64,000 nt of DNA from Escherichia coli. Its GTDB lineage: Bacteria; Pseudomonadota; Gammaproteobacteria; Enterobacterales; Enterobacteriaceae. A model generated the notes under the pieces. That model was given only the letters and a program-made list of their open reading frames with translations, was not told where the DNA came from and did no database searches. How positions within the stretch are numbered: position 1 is the stretch's first letter; every line of letters begins with the position of its first letter. The position numbers and the translations under genes were made by a program. The stretch lies in the NCBI RefSeq assembly GCF_013315695.1, contig NZ_CP054353.1, one strand, 5' to 3'. Of this stretch, positions 34,506 through 34,717 are shown piece by piece.

Positions 34506-34571
34506 CTTTATCACTCCTGGGTGTGAATTAACGTTTTAAAATCTTTTGCTGTCTGGTGTGCCGGATGTTTT

Positions 34572-34605
34572 GTCGGATGCGGCGTGAACGCCTTATCCGA
34601 CCTAC
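34572..34605. repeat. REP element in the purC upstream/leader region
   Basis: GTCGGATGCGGCGTGAACGCCTTATCCGACCTAC. Confidence 0.75.
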
Positions 34606-34658
34606 GTCCGACAAACAAATTTCGTGCGAATTACCGCTAAAATCGCATTTTTCTGCCG

Positions 34659-34674
34659 ACGCACACGTTTGCGT
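34659..34674 (-). promoter_or_regulatory. Candidate PurR operator (PUR box) upstream of purC
   Basis: ACGCACACGTTTGCGT, one mismatch to the palindromic PurR consensus ACGCAAACGTTTGCGT. Confidence 0.55.
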
Positions 34675-34717
34675 ATCATATCAGAAAAAAGGGCCGGATG
34701 ACTCCAGCCCTGTATTT

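Follow-up and report, generated by a model that had tools for sequence, protein, structure and literature searches.

A single REP element lies within the transcribed leader of purC in Escherichia coli, and an insertion in Escherichia probably brought it into this PurR-controlled leader, where it seems to travel as a near-neutral passenger of a gene controlled at transcription initiation. The mechanism that we propose has few steps: an insertion of about 103 bp, present in Escherichia only among the sampled genera, would have carried a single Y-type REP into the purC 5' UTR; corepressor-bound PurR, covering -6 to +10, would block initiation at an extended -10 promoter; and every mRNA that starts at this promoter carries the REP at +64 to +97, where the element would fold with a predicted energy of -15 to -17 kcal/mol (-27 to -30 kcal/mol with its outer stem) and would neither terminate transcription nor pair with the Shine-Dalgarno region. 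Only the anatomy of the insertion is new; the PurR operator of purC, its transcription start and REPs as a family belong to known biology.

The window, by which we mean the whole 64,000-nt stretch of E. coli DNA that was analysed, carries dapA, bamC, purC and ypfJ in this order on its minus strand (Table 1). A 401-bp query around the REP and the PUR box is 100% identical to strain TCM3e1, and a match covering at least 80% of the query was found in 5405 of 5426 complete E. coli genomes. A program ORF call opens purC at GTG 34514, three codons 5' of the annotated ATG at 34505; this GTG was rejected as the start, as it overlaps the Shine-Dalgarno sequence and RefSeq uses the ATG. Between Escherichia lineages bamC is far more diverged than the adjacent purC (four-fold site divergence of 0.36-0.39 versus 0.06-0.19) and has no indels, and the divergence contrast suggests different histories or constraints of the two neighbours.

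Table 1. Features of the bamC-purC region, with positions in the window and relative to the purC transcription start (+1).
Feature	Position in window	Position relative to +1	Strand	Details and basis
bamC	34718-35755		-	stop codon TAA at 34720-34718
bamC intrinsic terminator	34685..34711		-	hairpin 34711-34690, U-tract 34690-34685; terminator scan
purC extended -10 promoter	34675..34683		-	TGaTATGAT; sequence relative to published start site
PurR operator (PUR box)	34659..34674	-6 to +10	-	ChIP-chip site and consensus match
purC transcription start (A)	34668	+1	-	two independent published data sets, same base
Direct repeat, upstream copy B	34624..34655	+14 to +45	-	CAGAAAAATGCGATTTTAGCGGTAATTCGCAC; repeat search, spacing 103
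Block without counterpart in sister genera (72 nt)	34552..34623	+46 to +117	-	alignment with 61-nt Citrobacter leader
Compound nested hairpin (predicted)	34556..34616		-	outer stem UGUCGGA / UCCGGCA around the REP hairpin
Single Y-type REP palindromic unit	34572..34605	+64 to +97	-	GTCGGATGCGGCGTGAACGCCTTATCCGACCTAC
Direct repeat, downstream copy A	34521..34551	+118 to +148	-	CAGCAAAAGATTTTAAAACGTTAATTCACAC; repeat search and alignment
purC Shine-Dalgarno	34518-34514	+151 to +155	-	AGGAG; sequence
purC	33792-34505		-	start ATG 34505-34503 (+164); RefSeq annotation in K-12 and six other strains

Published 5'-end maps fix where purC transcription begins. A single purC start at NC_000913.2 2595803 on the minus strand, with 24 reads, a UTR of 163 nt and a promoter string ending ...CTGATATGATACGCAAA, is listed in Table S1 of Kim 2012, and SMRT-Cappable-seq (Yan 2018) places the purC start at NC_000913.3 2597781 with full-length reads to a termination site at 2596861. 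Converted to window positions through the purC ATG, both coordinates fall on the same A. This base lies inside the PUR box, so that the box spans the start site and the leader measures 163 nt with the REP transcribed as part of it. The initial annotation had placed the REP within the transcribed purC leader, and the published mapping agrees: both data sets set the start upstream of the REP, and a start downstream of the element, which would leave it outside the leader, was not observed. Upstream of the start, TG at 34683-34682 (-15/-14) and TATGAT at 34680-34675 (-12 to -7) make up the extended -10 promoter, which abuts the bamC terminator and starts four bases past its U-tract; the -35 region is poor and lies inside the terminator hairpin. 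A strict two-hexamer promoter scan found no purC promoter, because the promoter is of the extended -10 type.

The 16-mer at the start site, ACGCACACGTTTGCGT on the plus strand and ACGCAAACGTGTGCGT on the purC strand, differs from the PUR-box consensus ACGCAAACGTTTGCGT at one position and is identical to the PurR ChIP-chip site for purC, the occupancy of which responds to adenine (Cho 2011, PMC3159470). The same box, or one with a single mismatch to it, is found upstream of purC in 26 enterobacterial loci, so the operator is a 16-bp box that is bound in vivo and conserved across genera. A near-consensus box about 155 bp 5' of the purC ATG, directly 3' of the bamC terminator hairpin, had been described in the initial annotation, and this description is borne out by the ChIP-chip identity, by a measured distance of 154 nt from the proximal edge to the ATG, and by a box that begins 10 nt past the U-tract. 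A search allowing up to 3 mismatches returned 3 PUR-box sites in the window, against 0.6 expected by chance. The second of them, TCGCAAACGTTTGCTT at 58020-58035, is the purM-purN operator in the PurR ChIP-chip table (Cho 2011, PMC3159470). The remaining match is weaker, with 3 mismatches, and lies at 55136-55151. Repression of the pur regulon at initiation by PurR, with hypoxanthine and guanine as co-repressors, is established knowledge. Since the purC start lies within the box, bound PurR would block initiation there; binding has been shown by ChIP, and the mode of repression follows from what is established for the regulon.

The bamC terminator upstream of this promoter is predicted to fold with -17.0 kcal/mol (z = -5.1), and it works in vivo: in Term-seq (Adams 2021) the primary 3' end of bamC falls at MG1655 2597798/9 (window position 34685/6), and SMRT-Cappable-seq (Yan 2018) gives a bamC termination site at 2597797. 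Among dapA-bamC transcripts in M9, 255 reads end at the terminator and 197 read through, and bamC-purC(-ypfJ) read-through transcripts are listed in the same study (Yan 2018). Read-through of this extent means that purC is also reached from upstream promoters, and PurR on its operator could act as a roadblock to the dapA-bamC read-through transcripts.

Such transcripts raise the question of whether the REP may serve the upstream operon, either as a barrier to 3' exonucleases on dapA-bamC read-through RNA or as a partial Rho-dependent stop that would insulate purC. We consider this highly unlikely. Most REPs do lie in spacers that separate tandem or convergent genes, and REP325 combines the activities of a terminator and a stabiliser (Harris 2026 preprint), which together with the substantial read-through in M9 would suit such a role. 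However, the purC REP is situated 79-112 nt beyond a working intrinsic terminator, and bamC transcripts end 79 nt upstream of it, which is not the arrangement of a 3'-UTR stabiliser or terminator. With 113 nt between it and the stop codon of bamC, the element also exceeds the 15-nt limit on the distance of a REP from a stop codon that Liang reportedly set out in 2015. Read-through bamC transcripts extend by a median of 343 nt, a distance that reaches far beyond the REP; a stop no more than 50 nt from the termination site is seen in just 45 reads (Yan 2018), and no Term-seq 3' end falls at the REP.

Transcripts that start at the purC promoter also run through the element. At least 85 of the 88 long reads initiated at the purC start cross the REP and the whole of purC, as seen by a method that reportedly size-selects cDNA and by which short attenuated leader transcripts could be missed. 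Of these 88 reads, obtained in M9, 58 end at the purC termination site, 8 end no more than 50 nt after it and 19 continue past it (Yan 2018). Term-seq, performed partly in rich medium where purC is repressed, shows no 3' end in the leader between 2597619 and 2597780, the nearest being that of the bamC terminator (Adams 2021). Thus premature leader 3' ends of the kind that a riboswitch or an attenuator would leave appear neither in the long reads nor in Term-seq, and the two data sets together indicate that the REP is neither an efficient terminator nor a visible 3'-end trap at this locus.

The identity of the element itself is clear. On the purC sense strand it reads GTAG-GTCGGAT-AA-GGCG-TTCA-CGCC-GC-ATCCGAC, and it agrees at 32 of 34 positions with what we take to be the Y-type REP consensus, with no matches expected by chance and with the two mismatches forming a compensating pair; independent support comes from Rfam, in which it gives a sub-threshold match to the REP-derived naRNA4 (38.1 bits, E = 1e-4, gathering score 59.5). 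Membership in naRNA4 (RF02564) itself was rejected on this score. The features by which REPs are recognized, a 5' GTAG adjoining the stem and a stem that contains a mismatch (Ton-Hoang 2012, PMC3333891), are present as GTAG at 34605-34602 on the purC strand and as an AA/GC internal loop in the predicted hairpin. The element is extragenic, between the bamC stop (34718) and the purC ATG (34505), and multicopy, with the 401-bp query matching a median of 9 places per E. coli genome. The REP that the initial annotation had recognized between the PUR box and the purC ATG is therefore a canonical single Y-type unit. BIME membership was rejected, as there is one full REP with no second unit, and its neighbours are only 7-9-nt partial copies of its arms. 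Other REPs in the window lie at 2627-2709, 29884-29916 and 54902-54938; the first of these loci is a BIME-like inverted pair (2627-2660 on the plus and 2673-2709 on the minus strand), and the other two are single units. The RefSeq record of K-12 shows no repeat features, even at REP325. A REP in a 5' UTR is a less usual case than one in a 3' UTR or between cistrons, the settings stressed in recent work (Harris 2026 preprint), yet it is unremarkable.

As RNA, the REP is predicted to form a hairpin of -17.4 kcal/mol (z = -4.9) with its AA/GC internal loop. The partial arm copies just outside it read TGTCGGAc upstream and cATCCGGCA downstream on the purC strand. The compound hairpin with the outer stem reaches -30.9 kcal/mol (z = -6.05), or -30.1 kcal/mol here and -26.6 kcal/mol in K-12 by ViennaRNA. 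The outer 3' arm is CGACAGGCA in L003, a locus from a divergent Escherichia, and CGAGCAACA in E. albertii, and these differences may mean that the E. coli form is the derived one. From +1 into the coding region, 184 nt of the transcript are predicted to fold with -51.9 kcal/mol (z = -2.5); in this fold the 5'-terminal GUGUGC pairs with GCACAC at the 3' edge of the insert, and the Shine-Dalgarno sequence occupies a small loop that forms locally. A post-transcriptional role of the hairpin in purC expression, through mRNA stability or translation, had been raised as a possibility in the initial annotation. A hairpin that alters decay (for example by impeding 5' scanning by RNase E) or translation, and so gives PurC a lineage-specific setting, would be in keeping with a very stable structure (-17 to -31 kcal/mol), with its presence in the leader of every promoter-proximal transcript and with the predicted pairing of the 5' terminus. 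We nevertheless hold such a role to be unlikely. A gap of 53 nt separates the REP from the Shine-Dalgarno sequence, and the predicted fold contains no pairing between the two. Relatives that share the operator and the Shine-Dalgarno region lack the REP altogether, and our literature search found neither a described role of, or effect like this from, the REP in the purC leader nor an experiment in which it was removed. The original purC paper, that of Tiedeman in 1990, is said to have already noted dyad symmetries in the leader.

Comparison with other genera indicates how the element came to be there. A PurC search with one genome per species gave 80 loci, with Salmonella, Shigella, E. fergusonii and Klebsiella not among them. 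Counting leader length from the base equivalent to the E. coli start, the leader measures 59-63 nt in 18 of the 26 loci with an E. coli-type PUR box, Citrobacter, Enterobacter, Leclercia, Pseudocitrobacter and Phytobacter included; leaders of 162-163 nt are confined to E. coli-like Escherichia and E. albertii. Measured from the other end, the box starts 65-68 nt before the ATG in those five genera and 168-169 nt before it in E. coli, E. albertii and one divergent Escherichia. Citrobacter has the same terminator, -10 region, box and Shine-Dalgarno context, and one gap of about 102 nt is enough to align its sequence with that of E. coli. The 72-nt block consists of the REP core and unique flanks, and with one copy of a flanking repeat it makes up the insertion of about 103 bp. 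This flanking repeat is an imperfect direct repeat of about 32 nt, for which the gapped local alignment score is 31 against 14.3 +/- 2.7 in shuffles (1 of 2000 shuffles reaches it), and it is a duplication of the ancestral purC leader. Classical target-site duplications are far shorter than this. Since the window's three other REP loci have no such repeat, flanking duplication was rejected as a general mark of REPs.

Searches with the two 32-nt junctions of the insert found them, as single-copy sequence, in 5425 of 5426 E. coli genomes, which shows that the insertion is fixed and that only the REP core is repetitive; the idea that the flanks belong to a larger repeated mobile unit was rejected for the same single-copy state. 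In one E. coli genome both junctions are missing, and in another a plasmid, presumably through capture of a piece of chromosome, carries each of them a second time. Unrelated hairpin-forming inserts are found at the same leader position in four other genera, represented by Kluyvera genomosp. 1, Enterobacter sp. BIGb0383, Siccibacter and Shimwellia with leaders of 124, 94, 81 and 82 nt, respectively, and the inserts of Kluyvera and BIGb0383 share GACG(A/G)CGAGTATC.

Fixation of the insertion in E. coli and its retention in E. albertii, as well as the independent hairpin inserts at the same spot in other genera, which could hint that a hairpin is favoured there, bear again on a functional role in purC expression. 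The substitution pattern, however, points the other way. In a sample of ten Escherichia sequences, of which five are distinct, a compensatory change was found in 0 of 22 pairs and ten pairs vary by broken pairs only, a covariation test that has little power because only five distinct Escherichia sequences were available. All substitutions but one break a pair, the exception being a G-U wobble. Predicted energies of the REP hairpin are -17.4 kcal/mol here, -15.4 in K-12, -10.4 in MS1170, -13.0 in L003 and -14.5 in E. albertii; the last of these has lost nearly the whole outer stem along with part of the REP stem. None of the Escherichia sequences compared has lost the core hairpin. From both E. 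albertii and L003 the 72-nt block diverges by 0.139, which is within the range of four-fold degenerate sites (purC 0.06-0.19, bamC 0.36-0.39), and the last 46 nt before the ATG, including repeat copy A, show 0 changes among E. coli, E. albertii and L003. An invariant 46 nt next to a block that changes at the rate of four-fold sites argues for constraint on the ribosome-binding region and not on the REP. A Rfam scan found no riboswitch or leader family match in the purC leader; a riboswitch or attenuator was rejected as an explanation, there being no Rfam family, no counterpart in sister genera and 0 compensatory pairs. The evidence thus leans against a selected role of the hairpin in mRNA stability or translation, and its retention in almost every E. 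coli genome and in E. albertii could reflect either weak selection or no more than inheritance. The most likely status of the REP, the place of which in the leader is directly supported by the mapped start, is that of a selectively near-neutral passenger, and it would have at most a modest effect on the decay of the leader or on dapA-bamC read-through transcripts.

It might also be asked whether the element matters as DNA, as a site for TnpA-REP/RAYT, gyrase or HU or as a landing pad for IS elements, in which case any effect on purC would be incidental. GTAG and the stem mismatch are needed for TnpA-REP binding and cleavage in vitro (Ton-Hoang 2012, PMC3333891), and the partial arm copies and the 32-nt flanking repeat resemble traces of DNA processing. 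Yet the REP is single, the in vitro cleavages occur at an iREP or a linker, both of which are absent here, and the locus, uniform in length across 5425 genomes, shows no trace of rearrangement in progress or of inserted IS elements. Judged from these sequence features, a DNA-level role would have very little probability. All three alternatives, in purC expression, in the dapA-bamC operon and at the DNA level, are possible and lack positive support, and we retain insertion of a near-neutral REP into a leader controlled at initiation as the preferred explanation.

This explanation leaves the REP with little regulatory import, there being no sign that the hairpin controls purC. The annotation of the leader is now precise, with an extended -10 promoter abutting the terminator, an operator from -6 to +10 and a 163-nt UTR that contains the REP. 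In addition, the 103-bp Escherichia insertion with its 32-nt flanking duplication could serve work on the spread of REPs, the mechanism of which is still described as unresolved in the literature. The empty site is intact in Citrobacter and the filled site is fixed in Escherichia. It is a long shot that the purC leader is a clean filled-versus-empty-site record of REP arrival, or that the insert was retained for tuning PurC output; if the duplication were a signature of REP dissemination, for example by replication-coupled template switching, or if the insert did tune PurC, purC would be a useful model locus.

Most other pur operators overlap the -35 region, whereas the purC box straddles the transcription start, and its downstream half forms the first 10 nt of the mRNA. 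In other respects it resembles the PurR-PUR box operators of the pur regulon, being a 16-bp palindrome with one mismatch and adenine-responsive occupancy (Cho 2011, PMC3159470). With naRNA4 (Rfam RF02564) the purC-leader REP shares the Y half of the model; naRNA4, however, is a Z2+Y pair and the purC leader has one hairpin. The consensus, the GTAG, the two-base bubble in the stem, the location in a spacer between tandem genes and the multicopy nature are those of the E. coli REP/BIME family, in which single REPs account for 84 of 584 in K-12 (Ton-Hoang 2012, PMC3333891). Unlike typical members, the purC-leader REP is a lone unit without an inverted partner or a BIME linker, it lies downstream of a promoter and a transcription start and therefore in a 5' UTR instead of a 3' UTR, and on either side it has incomplete copies of its arms as well as a 32-nt duplication of the target. 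Intercistronic REPs that act as stabilisers and terminators are known, malE-malF being a further case. REP325 in yjdM-yjdN is of the same family and is likewise a transcribed stable hairpin between co-oriented genes (Harris 2026 preprint), but the purC-leader REP is preceded by an intrinsic terminator and by the promoter of the downstream gene itself, and transcripts, instead of forming a 3' end at it, run through.
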